A stretch of 64,000 nt of DNA from Nitrosopumilus sp. (GCA_965206745.1 OZ242220.1:1600001-1664000); one strand, 5' to 3'; shown: positions 2,012 through 50,251, counted from the stretch's first letter. Notes: a model not told the origin generated them from the letters alone. Program-made: numbers and translations.

Positions 2012-2058
2012 GGCTCTGATCAAATATGGTAATCAGATCACCGTTTGTGACCCGAACC
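2012..2058. repeat. 47-bp imperfect palindrome (dispersed repeat B)
   Basis: ggctctgatcaaatatggtaatc-a-gatcaccgtttgtgacccgaacc; arms pair 16/23; homologous copies at 22523, 28848, 32372, 36475. Confidence 0.75.
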
Positions 2059-2084
2059 AGTAGATAAAATATCAGTTAACTTGT

Positions 2085-2255
2085 TCATATTCCGCTCTTC
2101 ACGATAATCTTTTTCCCATCTATTACAAACTGAACAGAGTCAGGGTTATCCAAAAATTCCAATATGGGTTTTGGTACTCTGCAAATTGTACTATGCCTTC
2201 CATCATCAGACAGTTTTACAGAAAATATGGTTTCATCTTTTTTCCAGCGTGTCAA
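2085..2255 (-). CDS. Small AbrB/MazE-like DNA-binding protein (56 aa, below ORF-track cutoff)
   Basis: Hand translation MTRWKKDETIFSVKLSDDGRHSTICRVPKPILEFLDNPDSVQFVIDGKKIIVKSGI; xxPKxIxxxL...VxF pattern of swapped-hairpin AbrB fold; divergent from transposase. Confidence 0.6.
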   Translation of the reverse strand: MTRWKKDETIFSVKLSDDGRHSTICRVPKPILEFLDNPDSVQFVIDGKKIIVKSGI

Positions 2256-2495
2256 CAATTCAACGAATATTCAATATTATAAAAATTAACCGATCGCTTA
2301 GTTTTGCATACGGTTAACAGTAAGCATTAAATAAGCATACGGATAATATAACTACATGAAGCAAAGAGCGAGACAAACAATGAAGAAGACAAAAAATTCA
2401 GAGGGAAATTCACTCCCAATGATGAATCTGGCGTTACCCGAGTTCTTGAATCTCTTTGCTTTTTCCACTTTATTAATTTTCAAGAGGTCTTACGC

Positions 2496-3629
2496 ATGAA
2501 CAAAAGAGCTCGAAGAGCAAATCAGATCATGGAACTGCCAAACTTATTTGTCATACTCAGGAAAGGGGAGTATCAGGTAAGATCACAGTTTAATCATGAT
2601 TTATCCTACATTGTAAAAAGCACAGGTTTGGGTCTGGTGTGTGAGTGTCCAGATCACCAAAGACGAAGGTCCGACTGCAAGCACATCAAGGTGGTTCTAT
2701 GTCACATCAAGGAAAACAAGATTGAAAACAATGCCTTTAGAATGATGGAGAGAAACGAGGTAAAAATATGCAGATACTGTGATTCTGGAAACATCAAGAA
2801 AAATGGTATTGCAAGAAACAAATTAAGAAATATTCAGATGTTCAAATGCAGAGATTGTGGTAAGAAATTCCGAGATAATCTTGGATTTGAGAGAATGAGG
2901 CATGATCCAACTGTTATAATTCAAAGTATAAGAAAATTGAACTCAAAAATGTCCACAAGGGCAATAGCAGATGATTTTGAGCAGGACAATAGGACTCTAT
3001 CTCATATGAGTGTGTATCGCTGGATAGGAAAATATTCTAATCTGATATTTGATTATGCAAGAACAATAACCCCAAGACTATCTGAAAAATGGAGAACTGA
3101 TGAATTGTACGCAAAATTCAGCGGTAAGGGAAAATGGGTCTATACCATGATGGATGATGAAACCCGATTCATGATTTCCCAACAAATTTCAGATACAAAA
3201 TATACAGAAGATGTAACCCCCATGTTTAGGGATGCGAGTAAATGGGCAGGTATGATTCCCCATACTTTGATTTCTGATGGAGCTCCAAACTTTCACAACA
3301 TATGGAAATTGGAATGGAGACAAAAAAATCAATATCGAAAACTGACTTCACATATTCGTCATATTCATCTTGCAGGAGATATGAACAATAACAAGATGGA
3401 AAGACTGAATGGAACAATGAGGGATTGGGAACAAACCAGACGAGGTCTGAAAAAGATGAATAGTCCCATGTTCAAGGGATTTATGATTTTTTATAATTTT
3501 GTCAAGAAACATGGGGGACTGGATGGAAAAACACCGGCAGAAGAAGCCTTGATTCACGTTATTGGGAAAAATAAATTACTGACCCTGATTCAAAATGCAA
3601 GTTTGGAGAAAAGCAGAAATGCCTTTTAG
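2496..3629 (+). mobile_element. IS6-like DDE transposase with N-terminal SWIM Zn finger and Zn ribbon
   Basis: CECPD..CKH (SWIM); CRYC..CRDC ribbon; WRTDE, ISDG, NNKMERLNG = DDE triad; YNF..H..L..KTPAE C-terminus. Confidence 0.85.
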
Positions 3630-3870
3630 ATGTCGAATTTGCCTCATAGGCTATGATGATAGTCAGAAGGCAGATAGCCTGGTGGTCATGGGAATTCTAA
3701 CTCACAGATGCAAGGAGTGTGTGAGAACAGGCAACACAGAAGCAAATACAACTCATTGTAGATTTTGTGATGAAAAACACAATAATCTACAAGATTTTGA
3801 TTGTGGAGAGAATATTGTACCTCTTTGTAAGAGATGTTATGATGAAGAAACCGTGAAACTTGGAAAATAA
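3619..3870 (+). CDS. Small Cys-rich (4x CxxC) zinc-finger protein, probable IS passenger
   Basis: CRIC, CKEC, CRFC, CKRC; start overlaps transposase end. Confidence 0.55.
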   Translation: MPFRCRICLIGYDDSQKADSLVVMGILTHRCKECVRTGNTEANTTHCRFCDEKHNNLQDFDCGENIVPLCKRCYDEETVKLGK

Positions 3871-3887
3871 TTAATTCTTGTTTGAGA

Positions 3888-4058
3888 ATCGATTTGAGGC
3901 AAGATCCGTGTTTGCAGAACCAGTCTCATCTCATATCAACTTGACAGAAAATCCTCGATTTTAGGATTTTTTGAATTAGAAGAAGATCCGTATTTGGTGT
4001 TTTACATGCCATGAGTTGATTAATTCAAGGATTTGAATTGGAATAAGATCCGTATTTC
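3888..4058 (-). repeat. Three clustered copies of dispersed motif A
   Basis: aagatccgt cores at 3901, 3983, 4045, preceded by tttgaatt(a/g)gaa-like sequence. Confidence 0.65.
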
Positions 4059-4137
4059 TACTCATGTCTAGCCCCCGTTAATGTTACAGAACCTTATTTT
4101 CAACAACTTTAAATCTTTGAAGGTAACTTATACTAGT

Positions 4138-4586: not shown

Positions 4587-5438
4587 ATGCGCAGGCACTC
4601 CAAACATCCTGAATTTGTAAATTTGGAGAAGATTGTCTGGGAGGGCCTAAACAACATCGGCAGGACCATACCGCAAATAGAAAAACAAGAGGATAAAACT
4701 ATCAAAATCAGCCCTGAGCAGAAATCATCTATAAACGACCCAATCTGGCACACCAAGCCCGAGTTGGATCAGTATGTCGCAAAAGAACTGGGATTGGTAT
4801 TAAAGGACTATGGAGATAACACAAAGACAAACGCGCTTTACAATGCAGTCGTATCTGAAGTGCGCAGATTACGAAAATGCAACATCCTCATAGACTGGCA
4901 TCTGACTGAAAGCAAGAAAAGAGGAATGGGCTTGTGGAGATTGGACAAAACAAAGCTTGAAAAATTTGTACACCGGCGCGCAGATCAAGAGATGAGGGAG
5001 AGCAACTTTTATTCGAATGGCAAGACCTCGATGATCTTTGTAAGGCAAAAGCAGGTCGCCTTTAGAAAAAAGTTGCTTGGAGAATATGGCAAGTGCGCAT
5101 TATGCGGATTCAAGCTTCCAGACTACATGATTGGGGCCCACATCGTACCCTATTCAGTGATGAGAAGAGAGGATGCGGCAAATGCAATGAATCCTGCCAA
5201 CGGGCTGCTGCTGTGCAGACTCTGCGATGTCGCATTTGAAAAGGGATCCATAACACTAGAGTCGGATTTGGGAATAACAATATCTGACTATCTGGCTGAG
5301 CAGGAGAGTCCTGCTGTAAGGTCCTGGCTTGGGCCGATTCCGGCAGAACTGCGCATCAGGGCAGATGCAAAGTATCCTCCGGATCCCAGCTATCTGAAAT
5401 GGAAGAAGAGGTTGCTTGCCAGTGCATGCTTGAATTAG
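4587..5438 (+). CDS. HNH endonuclease (HNH_2 type), putative modification-dependent restriction enzyme
   Basis: RQKQVAFR..CALCG..GAHIVP..NGLLLCRLCDVAF..P..YLKW; N-terminal helical/wHTH-like region. Confidence 0.8.
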   Translation: MRRHSKHPEFVNLEKIVWEGLNNIGRTIPQIEKQEDKTIKISPEQKSSINDPIWHTKPELDQYVAKELGLVLKDYGDNTKTNALYNAVVSEVRRLRKCNILIDWHLTESKKRGMGLWRLDKTKLEKFVHRRADQEMRESNFYSNGKTSMIFVRQKQVAFRKKLLGEYGKCALCGFKLPDYMIGAHIVPYSVMRREDAANAMNPANGLLLCRLCDVAFEKGSITLESDLGITISDYLAEQESPAVRSWLGPIPAELRIRADAKYPPDPSYLKWKKRLLASACLN

Positions 5439-7634: not shown

Positions 7635-9659
7635 CTAGGATGGTTGTGGGTTTGCCAATCGAATACATTCTTTGAAAATTTTTTCAAAGATTTGTAATTT
7701 TTCAGCAGACACTATTTTTTCTGCAAAACTGTATGCAATTGCCGGTTTTGATGATTTATTTTCTCGTTTAGCCTCAGAATATGCATCGGAATCAATACGT
7801 TCCATCAGATCTTCCAAATCCCCACCTTCTATGACTAAAACAGGACCATCTGGACATACATCGTCTTTAGAGATGGTTCCACTTGAATCAAAAAGGTCTT
7901 TTGCATCATAGTCAGCTATAATCAAGTATGGAATTTCAAAACTTGCCATTAACTTTTCATACTTGGCAAAACCATCCTTTCCGCCAACTTGTGTAATTAT
8001 TATATCGTTTCCAGTAATATCAGCACCCTTTGAACGAGATTCCAAGAAATTAGAGATTCCAATCAAGAGATTTTTATCAGAATCACCTTCGGTAAAAATA
8101 ACACCTTTACTAAAAAATATCTGCGTATCTAGTTGATGTCTTAGCCTATGACGATTTTCATTAAACCATGTCTCTGTTTCCCCATCTAGTTTTTTTACAA
8201 CTGTATGTTGGTCCGTCTTGCGTAAATATAGTATGTCAGATTTCTCTTCAAAAATTTCATGGCTTGTAAGTTCAGGGGAATGTGTAATTACAATAAATTG
8301 ATTGGTATTATCCGAATTTTGCAATGATCTGGTCAGTGATTTCATTAAATTTGGGTGTAGGTTGACTGATGGTTCATCCAACAAGATGACAGAGTTGCTT
8401 ACTCCATGTGCTAACGTTAGGAGGTAGATTACCTCCAATATTCCAGAACCCACTTGATTAGTTGGAAATTGTCTTTCTAACTTTTTATCAACGATCATGA
8501 TGGCAGGTATTTTGGGTTTTGGAGGATTCAAATTTCCCACAAGATCATAGTCTGGACGATGTCTAGATTGTAATAATACATCAAAATCTAAATTGTTTGT
8601 TTCAAATATATCATGAAATTCATTTTTAATTTTAGAAAATTTGATTCTGGCATTTTGTTTTGGAGAATTTTTCAGACTAAACAGAAATTGTGTCAAATTA
8701 CTCCCATCAGATTTTAACATATCATCAAATTCAATGACTTTATCAAGTGCCCGTTGATCTAGTACTTTATTAAAATCATTTCTTGTTTCCCCATCAACAT
8801 TTACTTGTTGTGTATATGGAATTTTCAAAAAATGGGCATAGTCCAAAAGAGTTAGAGATGGATTAGATCTGTTACCTGAAGAATGAATAATGCCTTTTTG
8901 GAGAATTTGCCCCAGTATCTCTAGAAAACTTATGCTGTTACTATATCCAGGATAAAGTTCTAGATAAGATAACAGTTCTGTTAGAGTTTTTTTTCCCACA
9001 TCATCATACTGTTCATGTTTTCCTGCTTCAATATTTGATAAAAAAATGCTTGTTTGAATTTTATCATCAAAAATATGATCGATATGCTCAACTGTGTTTT
9101 TTATTTCAGTTATTCCATCAAGTATATTAAAAAATTTGATTTTTTTTTCCATTGTAGTTTCAATATTTTTTGCTGGAAATTTATTTGATATTTTGAAACT
9201 AGAAAATGAATTATTAAAAAATTTCAAACCACTTTTAGGAAAATTAATTTTTATAAAAGAGTCAGATTCATATCCCTTTACTACTTTTTCCCATGACAGA
9301 TTGATTGTCATTTCATCAAATAATTCTAGTAAGATTTCTCTGTTCTCAAAATGATGATATTTTACTCGGTCAGTTACTGTGTCAGTATAAAAACCGAAAC
9401 AATCTATGATTTTTTGAGTTTCATCAGTTGAAAGTTTTAGAGATATTTCTAGAGATGGATTGAGATGGCCGATTGAAATCTTTGAATCATCTAAAGAAGA
9501 TCTGTGTAATGTATCAGTTAAAAGCTTCAAAAGTCGAAATATATTTGATTTGCCAGAATTGTTAGGTCCTACTATTACCATGTTATTTGTAAATTTAAAA
9601 TTAATCGGTTTGTAGAAAGAATACAATCCTTCGCATCTAAGATGTTGCAGACATACCAT
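7635..9659 (-). CDS. OLD-family ATP-dependent nuclease (ABC ATPase + TOPRIM)
   Basis: Walker A GPNNSGKS, signature GSG, Walker B ILLDEP, ITHS, TOPRIM TEGDSD and DYD. Confidence 0.85.
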   Translation of the reverse strand: MVCLQHLRCEGLYSFYKPINFKFTNNMVIVGPNNSGKSNIFRLLKLLTDTLHRSSLDDSKISIGHLNPSLEISLKLSTDETQKIIDCFGFYTDTVTDRVKYHHFENREILLELFDEMTINLSWEKVVKGYESDSFIKINFPKSGLKFFNNSFSSFKISNKFPAKNIETTMEKKIKFFNILDGITEIKNTVEHIDHIFDDKIQTSIFLSNIEAGKHEQYDDVGKKTLTELLSYLELYPGYSNSISFLEILGQILQKGIIHSSGNRSNPSLTLLDYAHFLKIPYTQQVNVDGETRNDFNKVLDQRALDKVIEFDDMLKSDGSNLTQFLFSLKNSPKQNARIKFSKIKNEFHDIFETNNLDFDVLLQSRHRPDYDLVGNLNPPKPKIPAIMIVDKKLERQFPTNQVGSGILEVIYLLTLAHGVSNSVILLDEPSVNLHPNLMKSLTRSLQNSDNTNQFIVITHSPELTSHEIFEEKSDILYLRKTDQHTVVKKLDGETETWFNENRHRLRHQLDTQIFFSKGVIFTEGDSDKNLLIGISNFLESRSKGADITGNDIIITQVGGKDGFAKYEKLMASFEIPYLIIADYDAKDLFDSSGTISKDDVCPDGPVLVIEGGDLEDLMERIDSDAYSEAKRENKSSKPAIAYSFAEKIVSAEKLQIFEKIFKECIRLANPQPS

Positions 9660-11190: not shown

Positions 11191-12354
11191 TTATTTATTT
11201 AATTCCATTTTGCTATAATTACCATCATCATCAAAATAATGACACTTCCATAAACCACAATTATTAAACACTTCATCCATTATTGATGAAGTTATTTTAC
11301 TAAAATCACTTTGAAGTTGCTCTACATTATATTGCCTTTTAATTGCAATATGATTATTTTCTGATTTGAAAGTAGAGCCAAACAATCTACGAGGAGATTC
11401 GATGCATAATTTTCTGGAGGTATTTTTCAAACAGATGAAAATTTCTACCTCATCAAAATAATTATGTTTTGATAATATAACATATGCAAACTGTAAAACA
11501 TGCATGATTCTTATTGCTAGGAGTGAATCTCTTATGTATACACCAACCAGATCATCATCTCTAAAATATCCCAAATCAGCACAATAATGAATGCAGCCAT
11601 TTCTATGAATTTCTAGGTTCGCTCTATCATCTTTATGTATCACACCATGTTTACTAGGTATTGAATGGGAGGGTAAAAAACTATGATGTGGTGCAAAGCT
11701 AAAACCAGCAGGTTCAAAATTTATTCTGTTAGGATCAAGCCAGTCAAATTCTTCAGGATTAGTTGTTTGTATCAATTGCTTATCTATAATAGATGGAATA
11801 ACAACAATTTGTAGTAAAACTTTTTCATGATTATAAATATCTGTAATTTTATCAAGATATTTTTTTGTATTTTGAAGTAAATAAGATCTATTTTTGTACA
11901 TTGAAGATATTTCTTGTTCGGACATTGGTGTTGATGTAAATTCAAAACGTTTGTAAAACTTGTTGTTCTTATTGTTGTAATGTGGTTTATGACCGCTGTC
12001 AGGTACTTGAAGAATTAAGAAAAGATTGTCATTTTGTTCATTTTCTATTGTATGTATCTTTACATGAAGCCGTGGCTGGATGTTAGACAATATTATTTGC
12101 TCTATTCTTTCTTTATTGATGGGAGCTTTGATACCCTCTGTTGCTATCGGATGACCGCCCTTGCCTGATTCTTTAATACCAAATACAATATAACCACCAC
12201 GAGTGTTTGCAAATGCACTTACATGCTTTACTAGTGCATCATCATCCATCATCTCTTCCTTGTAATCAAGCATATCACTTTCTGGAATTTTATCATTTAG
12301 GAGAAATTGCACATCATTGTAATCTAAATCATCTATATTTTTTTGAAATATCAC
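11191..12354 (-). CDS. Schlafen/AlbA_2 domain protein
   Basis: ESDMLDYKE..VSAFANTRGGYIVFGIKE..KPH..FYKR. Confidence 0.85.
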   Translation of the reverse strand: MIFQKNIDDLDYNDVQFLLNDKIPESDMLDYKEEMMDDDALVKHVSAFANTRGGYIVFGIKESGKGGHPIATEGIKAPINKERIEQIILSNIQPRLHVKIHTIENEQNDNLFLILQVPDSGHKPHYNNKNNKFYKRFEFTSTPMSEQEISSMYKNRSYLLQNTKKYLDKITDIYNHEKVLLQIVVIPSIIDKQLIQTTNPEEFDWLDPNRINFEPAGFSFAPHHSFLPSHSIPSKHGVIHKDDRANLEIHRNGCIHYCADLGYFRDDDLVGVYIRDSLLAIRIMHVLQFAYVILSKHNYFDEVEIFICLKNTSRKLCIESPRRLFGSTFKSENNHIAIKRQYNVEQLQSDFSKITSSIMDEVFNNCGLWKCHYFDDDGNYSKMELNK

Positions 12355-13246: not shown

Positions 13247-13445
13247 TAATTAAATTTTAAGATATTTGAAATTATCGCTAGCTAATTTATTGTGTTATAT
13301 GAGAACCGATGAGATGCAGATCTTATTTCGATTCAAAAAATCACTAGTCTATAGATTCAACCCAGTGGCATATTCATGAAAAATTATTTTTAAAATATGT
13401 GAGATATTGTTCAAAATCAATTAAACTTTTACATGATATACAAAA

Positions 13446-26641: not shown

Positions 26642-26643
26642 GA

Positions 26644-31900: not shown

Positions 31901-32139
31901 CGTTCACTATGATCTATTGGTTTTCTTCGTTCACCTGAATTCGTCATATTTTTCTTTGTCAACAAATCAATCACTTCACGCAACGAATGTGCAAAATGAA
32001 CTAATCTTTCAGGATTGTCTATGTGTTTTAATGCATAAATTGCGCCTAAATATGGTTCCTGTAATCTATCATAGAATTCCGATATTGTAATACAGATTTT
32101 CTTTTGTTCGGGAGTACAATGTCTAAAATCAACCGTCAA
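28921..32139 (-). CDS. Large protein: N-terminal HEPN-like domain + long alpha-helical repeat region
   Basis: NPERLVHFAHSLRE..YRYLNGIVHH; WRSAIEDDEQN and all-helical C-terminus; no Walker A found. Confidence 0.7.
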   Translation of the reverse strand: MTVDFRHCTPEQKKICITISEFYDRLQEPYLGAIYALKHIDNPERLVHFAHSLREVIDLLTKKNMTNSGERRKPIDHSERIFLLKQVIDLKGQGSISNDSRYDRLVNEYRYLNGIVHHGTIDDEDDLISKLDDVGKIIAELVQPPTDIFDEIDKIITHSPSIKDAEKLKHLAVPYASVIHMFDKLSEKWLEFLKKVGFFDNPSGSISEDGKLVYYFWAPSAYLIKCVKEYPDLVTQIILDCKFKSKKKRNPRIYEDFLSCAITLPITHALKIAQKSLDENWYDFIQSGYTQDHLFTEKYSQFVKKLFLENESDLATKIFELIFNPISSETSSDLWEQPNSKQAIYPFTEFWYNEYFSDLISDISSKHPKLTIKLISDLLEKALDIDHFGMDAQMSVTYWRSAIEDDEQNRNTDIKSPFVSKLRICLVELGKKDISILKNCMSILNGKKYLIYRRIELHIFSVFPDAFKPQIELSLLLYFKNIDAYHEYYNLIEKMFGNVSNCIREKILEMIIDGYSDEEIPKKIKFAEEEIYLQKSCKLRQLTSIKKYLDKKHKQIFDELEKELGSIDTPESLHPPVRVSVMEPPKPSDDFRHKSVDDVFEIAKTLKLNSGIYARDDIRAVNFGDYVKNNTLECSKRAIELKDIAPYLLYEFFSNIKNALKDKNEINWDGILSLIKYLIKNHDDEKYRSTSYDPILKFSQLLETALKEDYIDFIHKDRLLSILECIVEIGTKNPSSDNYLGENFADDALTVCINGMDGVSFHILANYLLWHRKHSDGKKFIEPRIKQILDNYLDKKFIRQTISRHAVFGLYLPSFYYLDKELFDQILEKIESDKKLKIAFWECYVRYNKLYTDIFKKIPTWYAKMLNSDLLRDNKAHAAYNSTIDHMILAYFYDFDKVDAYFEQFLVENKEITDEENDYEAPIQHCVFQIANVIKGKKNDQKFNKEKLKKLWNHESFSKHAQLYEWFTNSPLDDETTIKLYRDYLERYEGKFNLIYIKFSKLEKYIPKYSILVAECLKLLVEKRNSAYIPKPEIKNLLESLLKDNHDGVRDICKKIIDHLLRSSYDYRDLLR

Positions 32140-32304: not shown

Positions 32305-32418
32305 AGGTTCTGTGTAATCTTGGGGATATAGATGTGAAATACGGATCTTATTCTGATTCAAAAAACCCCTTGGTTCTGTTCACAAATAGTGATCTGATCA
32401 CTATATTTAATCAGAGCC
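32305..32418. repeat. Most complete composite dispersed repeat (leader + motif A + 47-bp palindrome B)
   Basis: aggttctgtgtaatcttgggga..gaaatacggatcttattctgattcaaaaaacccc-tt-ggttctgttcacaaatagtgatc-t-gatcactatatttaatcagagcc; B arms pair 18/23. Confidence 0.8.
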
Positions 32419-35326: not shown

Positions 35327-35710
35327 ACGCATGACACCCTCCAGTCCCGGCAGGCACAGCCACTGCGTGGCTCTCAAATAGTATGAGAAATACAACAAAG
35401 TGTGAAGACTGGGAGGACCTGCAAGGAAGTATGCAAAAAGTACGAGGTAAAAAAGCCCGCCGGGGCAGGAAGATACGTCTCAGGGCAGGGCAGGTGCCAG
35501 ATCTGCGAGATATGGATCGACCACAGGGGATGCCACATCAGTAACGGCTCTCCTGCAAGCGCCGCTGACCGCGGCTGGTTCTGCAACTGCTGCAACTATA
35601 GGATAAGAAAGACGCCGCGCAACAAGGTGTACAAGGAGAAGCTGAGGAGGAGCCAGGATGAAGCCGGGGTGTGATGCGGGGTTGTGCGTCTCTTTTGGAT
35701 TTGTGATGGT
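35327..35710 (+). repeat. ~380-bp direct repeat, copy 1
   Basis: Near-identical to 41572..41951. Confidence 0.9.
35402..35674 (+). CDS. Small Cys-rich Zn-finger protein of a Thaumarchaeota-type family
   Basis: TCKEVC..GRYVSGQGRCQICEIW..CNCCNYRIRKTPRN. Confidence 0.7.
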   Translation: MKTGRTCKEVCKKYEVKKPAGAGRYVSGQGRCQICEIWIDHRGCHISNGSPASAADRGWFCNCCNYRIRKTPRNKVYKEKLRRSQDEAGV

Positions 35711-35959
35711 AAGATGTATGGCAGAGTATAGTAGAATAGATGTTGCCATTACTACAATGGATAGAACTGGAATAATTCTTGCATTGTTAAATCGAATGAA
35801 AGTCTCACTAGACTGTAAAGTTCAAGTGATTTCAGTACACTCTACACATGTAGGATGACTAGAACATACATAGAGGTAAGTTGAAAACCCCAATCAACTG
35901 GCCAGTGCATTTGTTCAGACACTGTTCAATTCACAGGATCTAGGCACTATTTTATTAGG

Positions 35960-36474: not shown

Positions 36475-36547
36475 GGTTTTGATCATAATGATGATCAGAT
36501 CGTCATGTTTGATCAAAATTGGAGATTTTTTGAATCGGAACAAGATT
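36475..36547 (-). repeat. Composite B+A repeat in reverse orientation
   Basis: ggttttgatcataatgatgatc-a-gatcgtcatgtttgatcaaaatt, then ttttttgaatcggaacaagat at nearly the same spacing as the 32341 copy. Confidence 0.7.
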
Positions 36548-36884
36548 GCATTAGAAAAATAATGTGCTGATACAACATGTGAAATGAAATAGTGTTATTT
36601 GAAATTATTACATGACAATTTGCCTCCCCTTACCATAATTCCAGGAATTATCCGATCAGATTTATATCGAACCCATCTTGTGGCATTCTCCTCTGGGTTG
36701 TCCAATACTGTGAGGGATAGGCAGGGCTGAGATCAGGCCAAGTGCCTGTTCAATAAGGGATTTGTAGGTTCATGGGTATGGAGGAGCTTCCAAGATGAGA
36801 TTGGATGCTGTCTTTCTATAGAGTTCTCCAGTCTGGGAGCTGTGCAGACCAAAATAATTTTAAATTAGTTTTGCCATTTCAGAG

Positions 36885-37811
36885 GTGTTGGGATTTTTTG
36901 ATGCCATTAAAAAGAGCAGAAGGCAGGTGAGTCGGGAGAATCAGAGTCAGGGCAGGGCAGGCGAGAAGAAGATTCGTGAAAAATATGAGATGACAGGATA
37001 CAAGGTGACAAGGACCGGGAAGGGGCACGACCTCAAGGCAGAAAAAAAGGACTGGTTCACCGGGGAGAACAGGGCAAAGTACATCGAGGTCAAGACAGGA
37101 AACTCTAAACTCTCCAAGCTTCAAAAGAAAAAACAGGGACAGATCGGGGGCAAGTATGTTGTTGAACGTCTCAAACCCACGACGTTTGGACTGGTTTCAA
37201 ACAACCGTGAATCAGATTCACGCTCCAAGAAGTCAAAGTCATCTGGCTTTGGCAGTCCTGTTACTTGGGGGTCTGGCTCTACGAAGAAGAAGAAATCAGG
37301 CGGTATATTTGGATCCAGTACAGTTGATTCCATCTTTGGTTCGAGTTCAAAAAAGAAATCCAAGAGTAAGTCAGTTAGTATGTTTGGATCTAGTACAGTT
37401 GATTCCATCTTTGGTTCGAGTTCAAAAAAGAAATCCAAGAGTAAGTCAGTTAGTATGTTTGGATCTAGTACAGTTGATTCCATCTTTGGTTCGAGTTCAA
37501 AAAAGAAATCCAAGAGTAAGTCAGTTAGTATGTTTGGATCTAGTACAGTTGATTCCATCTTTGGTTCGAGTTCAAAAAAGAAATCTAAAAGTAAAAAGTC
37601 AGTCAGTATGTTTGGATCTAGTACAGTTGATTCCATCTTTGGCTCAGGTTCAAAAAAGAAGTCCAGGAAAAAGAAATCAGTTAGTATGTTTGGATCCGGT
37701 TCAGTTGATTCCATCTTTGGTTCGAGTTCAAAAAAGAAGTCCAGGAAAAAGAAATCAGTCAGTATGTTTGGATCATCAAAAAGAAACAAGAAAGATGTAG
37801 GAATCTGGTAG
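36885..37811 (+). CDS. Restriction-endonuclease-fold (DUF3883/NOV_C-like) domain + Lys/Ser-rich tandem repeat tail
   Basis: GRAGEKK..GY.V..TGKGHDL..YIEVKTG; six 25-26-aa repeats FGSSTVDSIFGSSSKKKSKSKSVSM. Confidence 0.7.
   Translation: MLGFFDAIKKSRRQVSRENQSQGRAGEKKIREKYEMTGYKVTRTGKGHDLKAEKKDWFTGENRAKYIEVKTGNSKLSKLQKKKQGQIGGKYVVERLKPTTFGLVSNNRESDSRSKKSKSSGFGSPVTWGSGSTKKKKSGGIFGSSTVDSIFGSSSKKKSKSKSVSMFGSSTVDSIFGSSSKKKSKSKSVSMFGSSTVDSIFGSSSKKKSKSKSVSMFGSSTVDSIFGSSSKKKSKSKKSVSMFGSSTVDSIFGSGSKKKSRKKKSVSMFGSGSVDSIFGSSSKKKSRKKKSVSMFGSSKRNKKDVGIW
37308..37784 (+). repeat. In-frame coding tandem repeat, 75/78-bp units, 6 full + partial
   Basis: Unit starts at 37308, 37383, 37458, 37533, 37611, 37689, 37767. 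Confidence 0.9.
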
Positions 37812-41571: not shown

Positions 41572-41951
41572 ACGCATGATACCCTGCAGTCCCGGCAGGC
41601 ACGGCCGCTGCGTGGCTCTCAAATAGTATGAAAAACACCACAAAGTGTGAAGACTGGGAGGACCTGCAAGGGAGTATGCAAAAAGTACGAGGTAAAAAAG
41701 CCCACCGGGGCAGGAAGATACGTCTCAGGGCAGGTGCCAGATCTGCGAGATATGGATCGACCACAGGGGATGCCACATCAGTGACGGCTCTCCTGCAGGT
41801 GCCGATGACCGCGGTTGGTTCTGCAACTGCTGCAACTATAGGATAAGAATGACGCCGCGCAACAGGGTGTACAAGGAGAAGCTGAGGAGGAGCCAGGATG
41901 AAGCCGGGGTGTGATGTGAGGTTATGCAGCTCTTTGTGGGTTTGTGGTAGT
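41572..41951 (+). repeat. ~380-bp direct repeat, copy 2
   Basis: Offset to copy 1 shifts from 6245 to 6240, consistent with a 5-bp deletion. Confidence 0.9.
41647..41914 (+). pseudogene. Frameshifted copy of the Zn-finger gene at 35402
   Basis: tcagggcagggcaggtg has become tcagggcaggtg (loss of one 5-nt unit). Confidence 0.8.
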
Positions 41952-42093
41952 GAAATGTATCCCTAGACTTTACAGGGCCAATTATAACGATAAAAGACAC
42001 TAAAATTATGTTTGTCAAGAGGGCATTTGCAGAAACTCTCGCCATCAAACATTATTTAGAAAAACAGATATCACGCTAAAATATGAAATTCAT

Positions 42094-43380
42094 ATGAGAT
42101 ATGAGAGTTTAAATGATCCACGATCTGAATTTCTTAAACAAGTTCAAAAAACATCTAATTGGTTTAAGAATGTTGAAATTTCTTTAGTGATTGTAAAAGA
42201 AGAAGGAAAGAATTTGTTAGTTGCAGGTAATGCGATCTTTGTTCACAAAAATGATGAAAACAGAAAAGAGATAACATATGACTATGACCGAGTAGTTTTA
42301 GCTAGAAGAATTTTGGAGATTGATGAATTCATCAAGTTATTTCCATCTAAACCTTCAAACACATTAGACATCAAAGATCTAGAGGCTATTTTTCTTGGAA
42401 CAGGTTTTGACCATGGCGTTTATCACATTCCCAGCAATTCTAAAGGATTTGATATGTTATTTGATTGGTCATCTAGAGTGTATCTATATGTGAGTGATCA
42501 AAGCACTTCCTATGATAGCGGATGGGATTTTCTTGTCAAACCTAACTGTCCCCCATTTCCTAATTTGAATGACGCAATAGATTCATTCTTAGATAAAGAG
42601 CATGCCCTTAGAGATCATCGTATTGATGGTCTAAAAATTATTTTGCCTGATTATCATGCACGTATCAAAGATATCGTAATATCTGATAACAGTATTTCAG
42701 TTGAAATAGAATCTAGAGAAATTAATCAAGATCAACTAATTTTTAAAATAAATGCCAAATATGGCCAAAAGCAATTTTTGTCTGAGGATATTTACATAGA
42801 TCAAAAGATCATTTACGTAAAAATCCCATTTAAACCTGAAACCATGTACTTATTTTTGATTGACAAGACTAATGGCAGTCTTTTTGATTTTGTAGAGTAT
42901 GGAAATTACACTACAGATCGTGTTAAACATATCACAATCAAAACATCCTCTGAATTAATTGAATCTTTGATTACCAAGGGAGAGAACAAAAATATTGAGT
43001 TAAAACGTAAAATAGGTTCTGAATTCTTAGAATCTGTAGGGGCTTTTGCAAATACTGAAGGTGGAAAAATTATTCTAGGCGTGGATGATCGTCAAAATAT
43101 TGTTGGGATTCATGATGATTTCTCAAAGTTGGAAAAACAAATTCGAGGTACAATTAATGGTAGAATTCAACCTCAAATAGAGGTGAATGTTGAGTTAATT
43201 GAAATTCGTCAAAGTCCTGTTGTGGTTGTTACCGTTCCTAATGGTAAGAACAAACCTTACTTGTTAGATGGAGTTGCATATATCCGAAATGACGAAGCAG
43301 ATGTGGCAATGGGTAGATCTGAATTAGATGCAATATACCATTCTAGATATTCTGTGAATAGAGACTCTGATCAAGATTAG
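42094..43380 (+). CDS. Protein with C-terminal Schlafen/AlbA_2 domain
   Basis: GENKNIELKR..VGAFANTEGGKIILGVDD..KPY..YIR. Confidence 0.8.
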   Translation: MRYESLNDPRSEFLKQVQKTSNWFKNVEISLVIVKEEGKNLLVAGNAIFVHKNDENRKEITYDYDRVVLARRILEIDEFIKLFPSKPSNTLDIKDLEAIFLGTGFDHGVYHIPSNSKGFDMLFDWSSRVYLYVSDQSTSYDSGWDFLVKPNCPPFPNLNDAIDSFLDKEHALRDHRIDGLKIILPDYHARIKDIVISDNSISVEIESREINQDQLIFKINAKYGQKQFLSEDIYIDQKIIYVKIPFKPETMYLFLIDKTNGSLFDFVEYGNYTTDRVKHITIKTSSELIESLITKGENKNIELKRKIGSEFLESVGAFANTEGGKIILGVDDRQNIVGIHDDFSKLEKQIRGTINGRIQPQIEVNVELIEIRQSPVVVVTVPNGKNKPYLLDGVAYIRNDEADVAMGRSELDAIYHSRYSVNRDSDQD

Positions 43381-43509
43381 TGATCTCGATAAAATTTTAT
43401 TATCTTTTTTAACATGTTGAATGCGATTTGATTTTATGATATTTTAGCTGACCTTTTGTATACAATTCATAAAACGTGGGTATTGTCAAATCTTCGGAGG
43501 TTAGTCGTT

Positions 43510-43540: not shown

Positions 43541-43701
43541 CATTTGGATCTAGATATGTCTAATCACACAATTCCAGAAATATCTCAAATTATAAAGTGA
43601 GAAATTATACGGATGCCATATTCAGGATCTGAAAAGGAGGTCAAGTAAGAAATGATGGTTGGTTTTTCCTCCTTATTTTGATCGGTTCTGTTAAATTATG
43701 A

Positions 43702-43959
43702 TTAGGGCTTGCATTTTATACAGGATTGAGCCTCGGGATAGTCTTGTTTGATGCAGGATAGTTGGGATTTTGTATATAATTTATAATCTGAATGAAGAGG
43801 AGAATCTTCTTTTTGTTCCATCATTGGAAGTTGGAAAGAACAACAACTAGTTTTATGAAATCTGTTTTTTGATGATGCTGGTCCTCTCACGACTGCCACA
43901 TAACCATCGACATTATTCTTGATAAAATATCTCAATTCTTCATGCGTTGTTTTATCCAT
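43702..43959 (-). CDS. Small Zn-binding protein (Ada-like H-x3-C...CxxCxP)
   Basis: RFHKTSC...CIKCKP. Confidence 0.55.
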   Translation of the reverse strand: MDKTTHEELRYFIKNNVDGYVAVVRGPASSKNRFHKTSCCSFQLPMMEQKEDSPLHSDYKLYTKSQLSCIKQDYPEAQSCIKCKP

Positions 43960-44009
43960 AATTATTTATCTTTTCATGATTGATTTAACCATTTTGTTGG
44001 TTGATTCTA

Positions 44010-44066
44010 TGTAGTCTTGGGGACCTGAAATACTGATCTTATTCCGGTTCAAAAAACCCCTCTGGT
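44010..44066 (+). repeat. Leader + motif A copy
   Basis: tgtagtcttggggacctgaaatactgatcttattccggttcaaaaaacccc. Confidence 0.75.
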
Positions 44067-44141: not shown

Positions 44142-46736
44142 TCAAGATTCATCGAGAATTAAATCCAATTCCACATGTAGTGAAGTAGGTAGCCATTCCA
44201 ACACATTTGATTTGTTTTTACGTATCCATGCAATACAATCATCAACATTTGAAATTTCCGGCTCCATTTTTGTATAAAGATAAAGTGCACTAGTTCGAGT
44301 AAAACCTGCATCTATCAATAAAAATATCCTAGGATCCCAAGCACCTGCTTCTAGATATTCAGGTAAATTAACACAGAAAGGTTCATCAGAATTATTTTCA
44401 TTTAAAATCTGTCCAACTATATCACAATAGCATTGTAAGGCTCGTGTATATTCAAATTTAATTTCAGTTTCAATATCATCATCAAGCTCATCAATCACTC
44501 TATTGATAAATGCTTTATCTTTTTCCTCATTCTTACGTAGACTTAGTTCAATTTTTTTAGCAAGTAATTGTTTGTATGGATATCCCTTAATCCAGTTAAC
44601 GGCAAGAGTACCAAAATAAATATAACTTTTATTAGATTTATGGAAAATAATTCGTGAAATAATTTCAAAAATTTGTAAAAGATTGTTGTAAAAATTTTTA
44701 CGATCATCTGGAAATGGTGGTAAAATTAAATTCTTTGGTGTTTTTAAAAATTTGTAAAGGTGATGCTGGAATCTAGGATCAATGCCTCTATTTTTAAGAA
44801 TAACGCTACGATTCAGATCTTTAATTGATGTTGAAATTTCTTGTAAATGAGTTATTATCTGTCCTTTTATTTCAGGATCTAATGATTTACATTTAGTATT
44901 CAAATAACCATCGATATCTAGAACCTGAAAATATTTTGTCATTAAATTTATTGCAACACTTTTTGTACCTTGATTTAAATTATTAGTAGTAAGAGAATTT
45001 TTTAGATATTCTAGAACGTCTGCTGTATTTTTAGAAAGAATTTTTTCAGTTGCACTTTTAATAGGTTCAATTTCAATTTCTGGATCAAATGGATCACTTT
45101 CAAACCATTCTTCTCTATCGATGCAGTAAATGTCTCCATAGTAATCTTTCAAAAGTCTACCTGCACGACCTGCTATATTATTCAAACTGGTTTTATCCAT
45201 ATTTAGTGTCTTGCCTAATTTTGGATTAAACAACACGACATTTTTTGCAGGTAAATTAACTCCTTCTATCAGTGTACTGGTACAACATAATGTGTCGATT
45301 TGTTTATTTTCGTAAAGATCTTTTACAACCAGTCTTACAAAATGAGGCATTTTACCATAATGATATCCTATTCCTGCGTCAAGATGATCTAGTAAATAAT
45401 ATTCAGAATGTACGTGTGTTTTAATAAAATCTATTGATTCTTTTAATTTATCAGACAATTCTGATCTTTCAGAATATTTAGAAATATACTTACAAACTGT
45501 TCTGCAATCACTCCTAGTATTACAATATACTAATGTTGGATCTTTACGTTGAATAATGTCAGTTACAACCAATGCTTTTTTAACCGACATTGTCTTTATT
45601 TCTACATTTTTCTCTATTTTTTTATCATATAATGGAATATTTTTATTAAATTCATACGAGAATAAAGAAAGATTCATTCGTTTTGGTTTTTTTGAAAATA
45701 TAACATCAAAGAAATTTTGACCTACGGGTGTTTTTGTTGTTTTGAATGTATTTATTCTATCATTAATATTGAAAATTTGTTTAAATCTATTTGGATCTGC
45801 ATTAGGAGAAATGAAGATTTTTTGCATTGCTGGATTTGACGACATCAAATCATACACTGCATCTTCTATTATTACTCCTCTATCATATTCACTTACTTTT
45901 TGTGCTTCATCGACGACTAATAATTGCACTTGTATTTCATACTCATTTGCAACCATTTGTTGTAATCTTTCTTGTGTCATAACAAAGATTTTTTTCTCAA
46001 CTTTAATTATTTTATCTATATTCATATTATTAACTGAATTAAAAATTAATATCTTTTTTGTAACATCTTCATAATTTTTTAAATTTTGTTTTAGGCTATC
46101 TTGAACTTCTTTAATCAATGATTTAGTAGGTGCAATGTAAACTGCACAATAGGTATCATTATGTTGAAGTTGTTCTGTAATAAATTTATGTACAATGAAA
46201 GATTTTCCAGCAGAAGTAGGAGCAGAAAAAGAAACATTCAGTTTCTTTTTAAGATTCAGTAAAATCTTACTCTGAAAATCGGTTAAATTATATTTTATGT
46301 TGCCAATTTCCTCTTGGTTGAAGATTTTTGATGAAATGATTTCTGGTAATTGCATATCATTTCCTTTTAACTCTACTGGAGAATCAAGAAAAGAAAAATA
46401 ATCTTTAGAATCTTCACTGTTGATCATATATTGTATGGTTGGAAGATCTCCTAATCGTGCCAAAATAATCTGGGCAAGATAAGGCAAGAATTCATATTTG
46501 TTTTTAAGAGTTTCTAAAAGAAAAATAGTGATTTTAAAGGCGATTTTTTGAAATTTTGCATTATTTTGATTTAAAGCCAAAACTGATGCAGATTCTACGA
46601 GTCGTTTGATTTGCTCTCGGGTAAGAGATTCGTTAGAGTTTGTAAATTTTGATAGTATTAGATCTCGATAATCTTTTTGAAAATCACTATTCTGATATAT
46701 GTTATCAGTAATAGCTGATACAAGTTTGCTAGTCAT
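44142..46736 (-). CDS. hamB: Hachiman HamB, Ski2-like SF2 helicase
   Basis: SAPTSAGKS, VVDEAQ, TQER, TSTLIEGVNLP, AGRAGR; overlaps a DUF1837-type gene. Confidence 0.85.
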   Translation of the reverse strand: MTSKLVSAITDNIYQNSDFQKDYRDLILSKFTNSNESLTREQIKRLVESASVLALNQNNAKFQKIAFKITIFLLETLKNKYEFLPYLAQIILARLGDLPTIQYMINSEDSKDYFSFLDSPVELKGNDMQLPEIISSKIFNQEEIGNIKYNLTDFQSKILLNLKKKLNVSFSAPTSAGKSFIVHKFITEQLQHNDTYCAVYIAPTKSLIKEVQDSLKQNLKNYEDVTKKILIFNSVNNMNIDKIIKVEKKIFVMTQERLQQMVANEYEIQVQLLVVDEAQKVSEYDRGVIIEDAVYDLMSSNPAMQKIFISPNADPNRFKQIFNINDRINTFKTTKTPVGQNFFDVIFSKKPKRMNLSLFSYEFNKNIPLYDKKIEKNVEIKTMSVKKALVVTDIIQRKDPTLVYCNTRSDCRTVCKYISKYSERSELSDKLKESIDFIKTHVHSEYYLLDHLDAGIGYHYGKMPHFVRLVVKDLYENKQIDTLCCTSTLIEGVNLPAKNVVLFNPKLGKTLNMDKTSLNNIAGRAGRLLKDYYGDIYCIDREEWFESDPFDPEIEIEPIKSATEKILSKNTADVLEYLKNSLTTNNLNQGTKSVAINLMTKYFQVLDIDGYLNTKCKSLDPEIKGQIITHLQEISTSIKDLNRSVILKNRGIDPRFQHHLYKFLKTPKNLILPPFPDDRKNFYNNLLQIFEIISRIIFHKSNKSYIYFGTLAVNWIKGYPYKQLLAKKIELSLRKNEEKDKAFINRVIDELDDDIETEIKFEYTRALQCYCDIVGQILNENNSDEPFCVNLPEYLEAGAWDPRIFLLIDAGFTRTSALYLYTKMEPEISNVDDCIAWIRKNKSNVLEWLPTSLHVELDLILDES

Positions 46737-47656
46737 GTTTCTAATTCCTCTAAGAATTTTTTTCTAAATTTATCTACACTTTTGAACGGCAGTATGTAAA
46801 AAGTTGTTGTTCTATTACGATCATCAGTTAAATTATTTTGAATAGATTCAGACACTGTCTTAAACAATCTATCATGTTCTTTTTGATATTCAGTTTGTAA
46901 ATAATTTCTAAGAGATGATTCAGATGCTGGTTTTTGTTTTCCCATTAAAGATTCATCATAACCAATAAACACTGCATTGGTTTTTGATAAATTACGTTTA
47001 TCTGAATATGGTGATAAAAGTTTAACAAGTTTCTCTGCGTATTCATCATATCTACTATTATCAATATGGCTTGAGACCAAATCAATTTCAAATTTTTCTT
47101 TTTTATGATCAAAATTTTTTATATCTTTAACTGCAGCATTCACTCCCGAAGAAAAATCCTTATGCATTTTAGATTGACCGTAATGTAGAATTATGCCATT
47201 ATCTACTTGAATATGAATTGCATCTAACCCATGAACATGCATTTGACTACTAGATTTGAGATTCATTTTATTCAAAAGTTGGAATATGCTTTTAGATTCA
47301 AGAATTAAAAAAAGAATTAATTCACCAGCTTCACCTGTTGTTTTATTTTTCACAAATTTACTTTTTGTTTTTTTCACAATATCAAACATTTTTGATGCTT
47401 GTTCTTCGGCAGTTAATCCTTCTAGAATGTATTCTTTTCTTTGTAAAACATAATTAATGCTTTTACTAGTAATAAATTCTATAAACTCTTCTTCACGAAT
47501 TTCACTCACTGTAGATTCAATTAGAAAAAATTCACAATTCAATTTCTGTTTAGATTTTGAATTTGGAAAAGAATACAAGATATTATCTAAAGTTGATTCA
47601 TTAATTGATCGTCTATTCTCCATAAATTTTTTGAATTCTGATTCATTTAGTGGCAA
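46733..47656 (-). CDS. hamA: Hachiman HamA (DUF1837) nuclease
   Basis: GEAGELILFLILE, KMNLK..VHGLDAIH, GQSK, VFIGYD, LPF. Confidence 0.85.
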   Translation of the reverse strand: MPLNESEFKKFMENRRSINESTLDNILYSFPNSKSKQKLNCEFFLIESTVSEIREEEFIEFITSKSINYVLQRKEYILEGLTAEEQASKMFDIVKKTKSKFVKNKTTGEAGELILFLILESKSIFQLLNKMNLKSSSQMHVHGLDAIHIQVDNGIILHYGQSKMHKDFSSGVNAAVKDIKNFDHKKEKFEIDLVSSHIDNSRYDEYAEKLVKLLSPYSDKRNLSKTNAVFIGYDESLMGKQKPASESSLRNYLQTEYQKEHDRLFKTVSESIQNNLTDDRNRTTTFYILPFKSVDKFRKKFLEELET

Positions 47657-48779
47657 CGAATAATCTAATGATCAATTATATTTAAAACCGTTTATGAATA
47701 TTCAGAAATTCTGATTGTATTTTCAAAATAACTGAAAAAATCTAATTTTTCAGATATTTGGATCTATTAAGAAGGAATATTCTATCATGCCAAGATATCA
47801 TGCCAAAAACACGACAAAACACTCCAAAATAACCACAGCATTGGCAAATTCAACTTTTCCATGATTGTATAGAAAAGGTCAACATTCCAATCTCAAAGAG
47901 ATACAGCTCAAAATATGGCCTAGTGCATACCGTATCACTATTACTTGTTATGTGCAAAAAACACTGCACTGTCAAATCCTCATATATTGGACATCAAATA
48001 CATGATCTTATTCCACCTCCAAAAAACCCCCCAGGCCCCCGACATCTATCAAACACACCCATTCATCGGACTGTCAATCTGATATTCCCACAGAAAGTTT
48101 GGGCAGGTATCCCCCCCAAACATCATATCGCAGGGTACAGGGGATACACCTGTGCAGGTTTGCCCCTTGGGCCCGCAGTTATCCTATCCCCCATATAGGG
48201 TATTTACAGTCAGGAGGACAGCAAGGGATGCCAGTAGGGTCTGCAGTCATCTCAGGGTAATCCTCAAGGGTACTATTGGCCGCATGTATGCAAGCCGGGG
48301 ATCAAAGCATGCCCTCTCCCTATCCCCCCAGGTCACAGAAGAGCCGGAGATTGTAAAGATCATAGAGAGGCACTTTGAGGGACGCCAGGGGTTTTCACTA
48401 TCTGCAGGGATTTGCAGGGACAGGGGTGCAAGGGCCTGAAAGGGTCAGAATATGCATAGAGGGGCCCCCACCCCCCACAGATGACAGGGAGGCAGGGCTT
48501 GCAGAACGTCATGTGACAGTTTCAGAGGCGGTAGGGGGGTATAGGGCTTTGGTGTGTAGGGGAACAGGTGAAACTGGGAATCTAAAAGCTGTTTCTTTGA
48601 TTGTATGGGGTTTAGAGGGATATCCCAAAGGTATGCCCTGGCCTGTAGTATCCCAATTTACAGGCGTAAATTTGTCAAATCCTGACTAGATATCAGATAA
48701 TCCTTGCCAAATTCTGCAATATCTGGAAAAATCCCGATCTCTTATGAAGGTTATATTGTCGTGCATACAGGCTTTTGTA

Positions 48780-49745
48780 ATGCCCAAAGATTATCTGCAG
48801 ATGTTCAATCGCTTCTTCAGCAAGGAGGGAAGAATGTCAAGCACATACAAGCCGGTATTCTTACGGGCCATTTTGGACATTGGGGATCTACACGACTCTG
48901 AAACAAAGCAAGGGTTGGTCGGAGGGCAGTGGTTGGAACGCAAAGATGGCAAAATCTTGGTGGATCTGAATTTTATTGCGATACGTTTTGCAAAATATTA
49001 CTGGGATATGGAGTATAGCTTTCATCTCAGACAATCCCAAGATCCGCAAGATGCAAACATTACCAGATTCATAAAAGAAATTCATGATCCCCAAAAGAAA
49101 CCGCCCACCATAAAGGAACTGTCATCTGATGAGATGGAGCATTTTAGAAACAAGGTAATTGCCAAGAGCATCAGGCCAGAGGTTCTGGTGTGGCTGCTTA
49201 CCGACATGGATGGGTTTTATAAAAAAATAGATTCAAAGATAATATCACTTGATGAGGATGTTATCGAATTTCTGCATATGCATAAGAGTATTCTCAAAAA
49301 AGGATTGAATAATTCCCTTGCAAAATACCTTGAAAAATTGAATCGCATGACGCCACAAATTGCAAACAAGATAGACAATGGGCTTAAAAATCGTACAATT
49401 TTAAAAACAGAGATACAGCTTTGGCTGAACAAACAGCAGGATTCCAAGTGTTTTTATTGCAAAAATAAACTTGATCGTCCACATGTTGATCATGTGATAC
49501 CATACAACTATGTTTTTTCAACTGACCCGTACAACTGTGCACTGACATGCCAGCAATGCAATTGCACAAAATCAGACATGTTGCCACACAAGGATTTATT
49601 CGACAACATAATAGAACGTAACAGGGAGATCACGGACTACCTGAAAAAGATAAACTCACAGTATGATGAGAAGTCATATCTGCGACTTTTTGATACGTGT
49701 GCAGAAGAATACAATGCTGGAAGATATTTTAGTCCGGATATCTAA
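48780..49745 (+). CDS. McrA-like HNH endonuclease with helical N-terminal domain
   Basis: CFYC..HVDHVIP..NCALTCQQCNCTKS; N-terminal STYKPVFLRAILD..YYW. Confidence 0.8.
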   Translation: MPKDYLQMFNRFFSKEGRMSSTYKPVFLRAILDIGDLHDSETKQGLVGGQWLERKDGKILVDLNFIAIRFAKYYWDMEYSFHLRQSQDPQDANITRFIKEIHDPQKKPPTIKELSSDEMEHFRNKVIAKSIRPEVLVWLLTDMDGFYKKIDSKIISLDEDVIEFLHMHKSILKKGLNNSLAKYLEKLNRMTPQIANKIDNGLKNRTILKTEIQLWLNKQQDSKCFYCKNKLDRPHVDHVIPYNYVFSTDPYNCALTCQQCNCTKSDMLPHKDLFDNIIERNREITDYLKKINSQYDEKSYLRLFDTCAEEYNAGRYFSPDI

Positions 49746-49766
49746 TAATTGATGAAAAATTTCAGA

Positions 49767-50036
49767 TTAATCTCTGGTTTTTGATATTATCAGGCCCAAT
49801 GCTATTGCTAAACCACCACCAATAATAACGCCTTTGCCCAAATCACTCTTCCACACATGTTTGACCAGTTCAGGGATGGATTCGTGTGGATCATTTTCAT
49901 CATAATGTGTTGAGCAGTTACCAGTTACAGGATCACACTCTGCATGCCAGTGCCCATTACGAAAATGGATTTTGTCTAATTTTTCACCTAATGATGGCTT
50001 CCAGTCTGGGTCTGCCTGATAGTCGTGAATACTCAT
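49767..50036 (-). CDS. Small His-rich protein with C-terminal TM helix
   Basis: HFR..HWH..HYDENDP..KH then GVIIGGGLAIALGLII. Confidence 0.6.
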   Translation of the reverse strand: MSIHDYQADPDWKPSLGEKLDKIHFRNGHWHAECDPVTGNCSTHYDENDPHESIPELVKHVWKSDLGKGVIIGGGLAIALGLIISKTRD

Positions 50037-50251
50037 ACTATCAAAATATGACTACTAGTATTTAATGATCAATGAAAAATTCCTTGTACAGTATCAGAGC
50101 AGATCATCATATTCGACCATAACTATAACAGTAAACCTCAAGTAGGTTTGTTATACCCATAACAATTTATACAAATATATTATCAATTAATTGAAATGTG
50201 CATTTTTTTCTCAAAAATAGACTTCCAAATTAGCCTCAAAATGGAGAAAAA

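Follow-up and report, generated by a model that had tools for sequence, protein, structure and literature searches.

A 47-bp palindrome that recurs between genes in a 64,000-nucleotide stretch of the Nitrosopumilus sp. genome (GCA_965206745.1 OZ242220.1:1600001-1664000, in the following the window, with positions counted from its first letter unless a genome position is stated) represents, with a probability which we put at about 70%, a family of miniature, non-coding elements that is specific to this lineage and derives from the ends of an IS6-like insertion sequence (IS), and on which the transposase would act in trans. The preliminary description of this DNA, made from the sequence alone, had compared the palindrome with integron attC sites, pdif modules and repetitive extragenic palindromic (REP) elements, and had proposed that it marks the capture of defence gene cassettes. 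As the element is short and non-coding, is present in many copies and has ends homologous to those of an autonomous IS, it comes closest to the miniature inverted-repeat transposable elements (MITEs), although it lacks the 8-bp target duplication by which these are also recognised.

Palindrome arms as insertion sequence ends

Every oriented copy of the element consists of one arm of type a (consensus GGCTCTGGTCAAATACAGTGATC) and one arm of type b (the reverse complement of GGYTCTGGTCACAAATGGTGATC), which face each other around a single base. When four a-arms, the short end at 3903-3921 and six long-form ends (with those of full-length ISs from four genomes of the same genus included) were aligned with MAFFT, the arms shared with the long-form ends a GGYTCTG tip and an AAATAYGG..ATC box, with a gap of 26-28 columns between the two, and therefore the arms are regarded as short-form IS ends. 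An arm can be described as the 7-nt tip GGYTCTG fused to the subterminal box AAATAYGG(TG)ATC, with about 27 nt lost, and the 47-bp element as two short-form ends with their tips pointing outward and nothing between them; its geometry, as far as the sequence tells, is that of an insertion sequence without its whole interior. The long-form end is present at 25 places of the genome (within 5 mismatches of its box), and it directly precedes several copies of the palindrome.

An intact gene for an IS6-like transposase of 377 aa, with an N-terminal zinc-binding domain and a DDE domain according to Pfam and NCBIfam, is located at 2496-3629 (+ strand), where it begins 437 nt to the right of the palindrome copy at 2012; it had been missed in the preliminary description. 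The protein reaches 38.2 bits against Pfam DDE_Tnp_IS240 (PF13610, cut-off 27; 41.5 bits in the genome search) and 29.3 bits against the N-terminal zinc domain NF050000 (cut-off 28), and it is unique in the genome (one tblastn match, one PF13610 match). Homologues were found in 79 of 151 genomes of the order (with the unpublished G148 counted in), often in multiple copies, and in 41 of 121 genus genomes at an E of 1e-60 or better, with stop-free full-length homologues present in relatives. Two identical copies in genome G067 define an IS of 2.8 kb with 50-bp inverted repeats starting with GGTTCTGT, and in the clade closest to the window transposase (52-55% identity) the ends consist of GGTTCTGTRAMRTTATCG, then 5-15 nt and then GAAATAYGGATCTTCT. 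Ends of the GGTTCTGT type lie beside the gene at 10 of 12 transposase loci of relatives in one set and at 4 of 6 in another, with GGTTTTGG in one case, and perfect 8-bp target duplications are present at five of the seven full-length IS copies examined in relatives. According to the main text of Varani et al. 2021 (PMC7986276), the inverted repeats of the IS6 family have GG tips together with CTG(T) and CAAA motifs, and the target repeats are 8 bp long; the ends and duplications of the relatives' elements show the same traits (GG tips, cTGTt/caaa motifs, 8-bp duplications).

To the right of the transposase gene, a short-form IS end in which the GGTTCTG tip is joined straight to the inner box (3903-3921, - strand) aligns in the same way as the a-arms, and beyond it lies a canonical long-form IS end (3967-4095, - strand) with its tip at 4095 and two direct AAATACGGATCTT boxes (cores 4029-4053 and 3967-3991). 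Upstream of the gene no canonical IS tip was found, and the sole IS-end-like sequence there is the palindrome at 2012-2058 (+ strand, a-arm then b-arm), which lies where the left end of the resident element is expected: 484 bp separate its first base from the transposase start, compared with about 500 bp in the nearest full-length homologue with clear ends. Judged by this position, the a-arm of copy 2012 would be the left end of the resident IS, whose length is about 1.9-2.1 kb. A loose search of the window for IS tips gave 113 matches, where 85 were expected, and only those at 4079, 32306 and 43684 are credible.

To hypothesize, the 47-bp element would act as DNA, offering the lone IS6-like transposase (2496-3629) two sites for binding and cleavage in trans, and IS6-type reactions without an 8-bp duplication (cointegrate formation, conservative events and adjacent deletions, for example) would have spread or rearranged its copies. 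Such duplication-free reactions would account for element tips as junctions of unrelated segments (see below). Many copies may be inert now.

That the palindrome family is real follows from the comparison of arm matches with a reversed-pattern control. In the window, the 23-nt arm pattern gave 7 matches at up to 3 mismatches and none in 100 shuffles. Across the whole genome (1.86 Mb, 41% GC, 99.6% complete) there were 45 matches at this level against 0 for the control, 22 against 1 at exactly 4 mismatches and 35 against 10 at 5 mismatches, so that up to 4 mismatches the totals are 67 and 1. From 80 candidate arm centres we curated a set of about 46 loci, where lone arms with 5 mismatches and neither a second arm nor a partner module were dropped because they are likely chance matches; full copies, searched with a 31-nt pattern spanning the centre of the palindrome, number 22 in the genome. 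GATC, on which the palindrome is centred, is mildly under-represented in this genome (observed/expected 0.78).

The element is restricted to the Nitrosopumilus sp. genome studied, as searches of 150 further genomes of the same genus and of 16 genomes from other families of the order did not yield the palindrome. The exact core pattern, which has 11 loci in its own genome, matched 5 stretches in 185,579 species genomes and 11 in metagenome contigs, all of them without arms and resembling coding sequence, and it had no match in viral contigs. Within its genome the element is located between genes and is concentrated in genomic islands: on our own map of open reading frames (ORFs), which has 85% coverage, 47 of 51 arm centres are not within an ORF of at least 100 aa, with the other four in short or start-proximal ORFs, 23 of the 46 loci fall at 1.6-1.8 Mb, and the GC content of the flanks is 0.38, compared with 0.41 at random sites (p=4e-6).

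Sequence conservation and the search for recombinases

The 47-bp palindrome does not have a maintained hairpin. In the alignment of 19 copies the mean column identity is 87%, the inner GTGATCNGATCAC core is strongly conserved, and the central base is A in 13 copies, T in 4, G in 1 and C in 1. Arm identities out of 23 positions are 17.4 for a-a and 18.8 for b-b, both above the 16.2 for a-b, and the pair positions 12 and 14 are complementary in none of the 19 copies. Complementarity is no greater between the two arms of one copy (16.05 of 23) than when arms are paired across copies (16.18, permutation p=0.73), and the same can be seen from the paired cells (75.7% compared with 76.1% in shuffles, 388 of 500 shuffles at least equal) and from the covariation score (0.115 compared with 0.120, 344 of 500 shuffles at least equal). 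The covarying examples from which the preliminary description concluded that the arms covary do exist, at the level expected by chance, and its conclusion does not stand. Therefore, as there is no covariation and the a-a and b-b identities are above a-b, what is conserved is two related, distinct sequences and not a structure. The orientation of the aligned copies is mixed (11 forward, 8 reverse), and the neighbouring copies at genome positions 201902 and 203196 are in opposite orientation within a co-directional row of genes.

These results bear directly on an attC-like or pdif-like site for the capture of single-gene cassettes by a site-specific recombinase, a reading which the imperfect palindrome among unrelated defence genes and the conserved unpaired pairs 12 and 14 would favour, and which is now largely refuted, with a very slight chance of being correct. 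In the 99.6%-complete genome there was no match to Phage_integrase (PF00589, tyrosine recombinase), to Resolvase (serine recombinase) or to Y1_Tnp (PF01797, HUH), although the same models found matches in 14, 12 and 6 of 14 control genomes, respectively; this implies that the genome has no Xer-type chromosome resolvase of the usual kind. The earlier observation that no integrase lies in the window agrees with this, and the linked tyrosine recombinase or HUH transposase that was proposed as a check was not found with either model. Also correct was the remark that canonical attC boxes are missing, since GTTRRRY/RYYYAAC is present neither in the consensus nor in the 19 aligned copies. The 23-1-23 architecture differs from that of dif sites, which is 11-6-11. 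With sequence conserved instead of structure, with no fixed orientation and with copies far fewer than genes, the proposed likeness to attC, pdif and REP could not be upheld.

As identities of the element, three known types of palindromic site were considered and rejected. Integrons have reportedly been described in archaea by Ghaly et al. (bioRxiv 10.1101/2022.02.06.479319). The attC sites of integrons, archaeal ones included, are likewise imperfect palindromes between unrelated accessory genes; unlike them, the element comes without an integrase or tyrosine recombinase, has no R/L (R''/R') boxes, conserves its sequence without a covarying stem and is not constant in orientation. A dif or pdif site, which is a Xer site, was rejected as no Xer-type tyrosine recombinase is present. 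REP elements and bacterial interspersed mosaic elements (BIMEs) with their REP-associated tyrosine transposase (RAYT), and the palindromes of IS200/IS605, are short, intergenic, imperfect, multi-copy sequences without target duplication, as is the element here, although the missing duplication is not specific to that family. They differ from it in that this genome has no Y1 HUH transposase, the arms match the ends of a DDE-type IS, and the hairpin is unmaintained.

A palindrome that serves the host, be it REP-like, a hairpin at the 3' end of transcripts or a site bound by a regulatory or chromatin protein, would agree with the intergenic position, the location of some copies 13-53 nt past stop codons and the strong conservation of the inner GTGATCNGATCAC core. 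We consider it improbable, as the arms can be aligned with IS ends and do not covary, two of the pair positions are unpaired in every copy, no Rfam family was found in the window at threshold and no gene of the Y1/RAYT type is present. The gene context of the 47 intergenic sites is unbiased (34 tandem, 8 divergent, 5 convergent), and since the palindrome was not found in any of the 150 congeners, it has no conserved host role.

Two further sequences were examined as other transposons and rejected. The second contig of the assembly (C2, 2066 bp) has direct and inverted internal repeats and no ORF of at least 100 aa, and is possibly an assembly leftover; a family of genes of about 410 aa with about 12 diverged copies (69-94% DNA identity, e.g., genome 272225-273457) has no Pfam match.

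Variable DNA, breakpoints and insertion scars

For positions 1-60 kb of the window there is no synteny in the five best-matching members of the genus, where similarity is scattered (64-77% identity, mainly in dnd genes), and because a syntenic counterpart is missing, fine breakpoints cannot be read within the window. The statement that the copies lie among defence genes proved right: they sit between genes in lineage-specific, low-GC, defence-rich DNA. At genome loci where relatives could be compared, copy 1213957 is located within a 1.53-kb insertion, about 150 bp from its edge, which the five best-matching relatives examined lack at this site, copy 813028 is in a stretch of about 200 bp in whose place four relatives have 600-760 bp and G017 has about 3.1 kb, copies 895575 and 896548 are between the genes of a 4.7-kb insertion, and copy 115574 is beside a non-syntenic gene.

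The 1.53-kb insertion (genome 1213787-1215314) holds one gene, for a repeat-rich membrane-anchored protein, and is flanked by a 15-bp direct repeat, ATTATTATTATATCT, which is single at the empty site in both relatives read. It looks like a site-specific or microhomology-mediated insertion.

The association of the element with variable gene boundaries is real. Ten of 79 element tips fall within 6 bp of a paralogy boundary (self-alignments of at least 150 bp), while 0.58 would be expected for random intergenic positions and 1.69 (sd 1.24; maximum 7 in 2000 draws) for intergenic positions within 3 kb of each element. In each inspected case, the paralogous partner is without the element and runs into unrelated DNA. 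The preliminary description had suggested examining whether breakpoints of gene gain and loss between strains fall at the palindrome; within this one genome, copy tips meet paralogy breakpoints more often than nearby intergenic positions do.

Among the loci of this kind is a tandem serpin array at genome 1704001-1713600 (Pfam Serpin, E near 1e-117 in 3 of 3 tested), where four serpin genes have an IS-end arm 13 nt past the stop codon; further serpin paralogues are located near 152, 224 and 228 kb.

Scars of simple transposition were looked for in the flanks. No flank 8-mers are common to different copies, in direct or inverted form, at 7 of 8 positions or better, and no target duplications were found at composites that start with a long-form tip. 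The missing target duplication speaks against simple transposition and is compatible with IS6-type events without duplication, with subsequent rearrangement and with import in the form of relics, none of which the data favour over the others.

Several observations weigh against the derivation of the element from an IS6-like IS with its transposase acting in trans. The best NCBIfam match of the transposase is the IS6 family transposase model, which is covered over the whole profile, although with 73.7 bits it is below the cut-off of 125, and the full ISs of the relatives are 1722-3248 bp long, compared with an IS6 norm of about 0.8 kb (0.7-0.9 kb, single ORF). An alignment could not verify the left end of the resident IS, as the non-coding DNA has diverged too far; against the nearest homologue, the coding part alone aligns, at 65%. 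Matching 8-bp flanks are present at none of 29 copies, although full-length relatives usually carry duplications (5 of 7), and at the four loci compared with relatives no clean presence or absence of 47 bp was found, with the element always within larger variable segments. The ten tip-breakpoint coincidences come down to about 7 independent cases, because four of them belong to the one tandem serpin array. Additionally, the pairwise divergence between copies is roughly 20%, which is compatible both with relics, old or imported, and with a family that is active.

Much of this would be expected of inert relics, which would have come in with horizontally acquired island DNA or from an old burst, and which would involve neither present enzyme action nor a cassette role. 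The divergence of the copies, the 0 of 29 with a target duplication, the position inside and not at the edges of larger lineage-specific segments wherever relatives are comparable, the flank GC below that of the genome and the resident IS without a canonical left end all point in this direction. Nevertheless, we take relics to be the less likely account, if the most serious of the alternatives: the element was found in no candidate donor (0 armed matches in species genomes, metagenome or viral contigs), an intact transposase of the matching family is present, and the tips meet paralogy breakpoints within the element's own genome.

A bolder version is that a copy with its adjacent gene or genes is excised or fused and reinserted by the IS6-like transposase beside another copy or IS end, so that the defence island would be built by cassette shuffling. 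Tips that are exact junctions of paralogous segments would agree with this, as would the missing target duplications, since conservative, targeted IS26 events leave none. The junctions between copies and adjoining IS-end fragments also vary (copy 2012 is next to the IS, and copy 32372 next to a long-form end in the reverse of the usual composite arrangement), and copies lie between genes within lineage-specific multi-gene insertions. We find such shuffling unlikely, considering the mixed orientation (11 forward, 8 reverse), the mere 5 or so copies for roughly 55 genes of the window, and the one resolved insertion, which is bounded by an unrelated 15-bp direct repeat and not by the element. It is likewise unlikely that a DDE transposase uses the 47-bp end-pairs as functioning recombination sites, a minimal substrate on which duplication-free reactions of the IS26 type would assemble an archaeal defence island, in a transposase-based counterpart of integron cassette capture.

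The IS26 arrays, a known parallel to such shuffling, are described by Varani et al. 2021 (PMC7986276). The translocatable units and pseudo-compound arrays of IS26 are similar to the situation here in that units made of IS ends stand between gene segments, duplications are missing and junctions fall at the tips. They differ in that their units are whole ISs, compared with 47-bp end-pairs in mixed orientation here, and in that here the host is an archaeon and the cargo consists of defence genes rather than resistance genes.

Element loci of the window and the defence island

Returning to the derivation from IS6-like ends, the loci of the window differ much in quality. The five full palindromes that had been reported are present at 2012-2058, 22523-22569, 28848-28894, 32372-32418 and 36475-36521, although two good arms are found only at 2012 and 32372. 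The copy at 22523-22569 (- strand) is a solo 47-bp element, a-arm then b-arm, with a degenerate b-arm, and both in this copy and in that at 28848 the right arm alone reaches 3 mismatches or fewer. The latter is part of a composite at 28737-28894 (+ strand), which begins with long-form IS-end boxes (core 28737-28761) and continues with the palindrome itself (28848-28894), made of a degenerate a-arm, T and the b-arm. At 32306-32418 (+ strand), a long-form IS end (tip 32306-32320, box 32341-32365) abuts the 47-bp element 32372-32418, whose a-arm and b-arm follow each other on the - strand, an arrangement opposite to that of the usual composite. A degenerate composite at 36475-36560 (- strand) consists of an IS-end box, a-arm, T and b-arm, with one arm of 22 nt (one base short), and has BLAST similarity to the composites at genome 115574 and 895575. 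As for the reported closeness of copies to stop codons, it was confirmed for two of them, at 53 nt (2012) and at 26 nt (28848, relative to the stop of ORF 28921-32139).

The half-site at 43363-43385 (+ strand) is a single variant ('c-type') arm over the stop codon of an SLFN/AlbA_2 gene (ORF 42094-43380), as had been stated, with 3 mismatches and hence a match of 20/23 rather than the 19/23 given. The second half-site, reported at 50102, is also present, with 5 mismatches and as a member of a variant class made of an arm plus a partner box: it is a degenerate c-type arm with its partner box at 50078-50124 (- strand). Further IS-end fragments are found at 43684-44056 (+ strand; tip-like 43684-43698, and a long-form end with its box at 44003-44056), and an isolated long-form IS-end box at 13316-13340 (+ strand).

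The arrangement at 50078-50124 is one case of a second module, in which a variant arm of the CAAGATTAGTGATC type is followed by the box CTCCYAGTTACTGTTCAATGGTG in direct orientation. It is present at genome 1370990-1371122 and also at 659397, 1436271, 1453271 and 1769215. Since the module recalls the doubled sub-repeats in the 50-bp IS ends of G067, it may be the end of another IS subfamily, one that has no transposase left in the genome.

Two repeats are located near the composite at 36475. A 394-bp direct repeat, 92% identical (35327-35719 and 41572-41960), encloses 5.9 kb with the palindrome 36475 and three ORFs, and the ORF 36885-37811, with a Nucleoporin_FG repeat match (E 1.9e-13), is built from a tandemly repeated DNA unit of about 75 bp (self-alignments 37287-37774).

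As a whole, positions 1-60000 of the window are a lineage-specific defence island. Its genes include a HsdS/MADS5-like specificity subunit (495-1958), an HNH_2 protein (4587-5438), an OLD-family ATPase-TOPRIM nuclease (7635-9659), two SLFN/AlbA_2 proteins (11191-12354 and 42094-43380), a GAP1-N2 and double-GTPase pair (24833-27636), a RelA/SpoT-domain protein (27675-28664), a 1072-aa protein with a weak match to a pPIWI-associated nuclease (28921-32139), Hachiman HamA with its helicase (44142-47656), an HNH protein (48744-49745) and dndB/C/D-like genes (50252-54660).

Among known systems, the ISs of the IS6/IS26 family and their rare MITEs are alike in having DDE_Tnp_IS240, GG-tipped repeats with CTG/CAAA motifs, 8-bp duplications (here in relatives) and non-coding derivatives with both ends. 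The differences are that the transposase here is distant (below the NCBIfam cut-off) and has an added N-terminal zinc domain, and that the full elements are 1.7-3.2 kb long, with ends of about 50-60 nt and repeated boxes. The IS6 MITEs mentioned in the main text of Varani et al. (PMC7986276) have 227 and 336 bp, compared with 47 bp here, where the arms are internally deleted and no target duplication is found. Krupovic et al. 2019 (PMC6563490) list the IS families of Thaumarchaeota, and the term 'MITE' is missing from their main text. In the passages of the literature considered (from PMC7986276, PMC13343696 and PMC6563490), neither this palindrome nor any IS6-derived MITE of Thaumarchaeota was found described.

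Taken together, the reading as an archaeal integron is unsupported, and it is replaced by a concrete and testable reading as IS ends, with a single IS6-like transposase gene, at least 25 long-form end fragments and about 46 end-pair loci, all in variable DNA. Should these pairs be dead relics, the finding would be an ordinary one, which provides a marker of island DNA and a warning against calling palindromes amid defence genes attC-like. If the transposase still acts on them, few known functional transposon derivatives would be as small, and they could show how archaeal defence islands are reshuffled.

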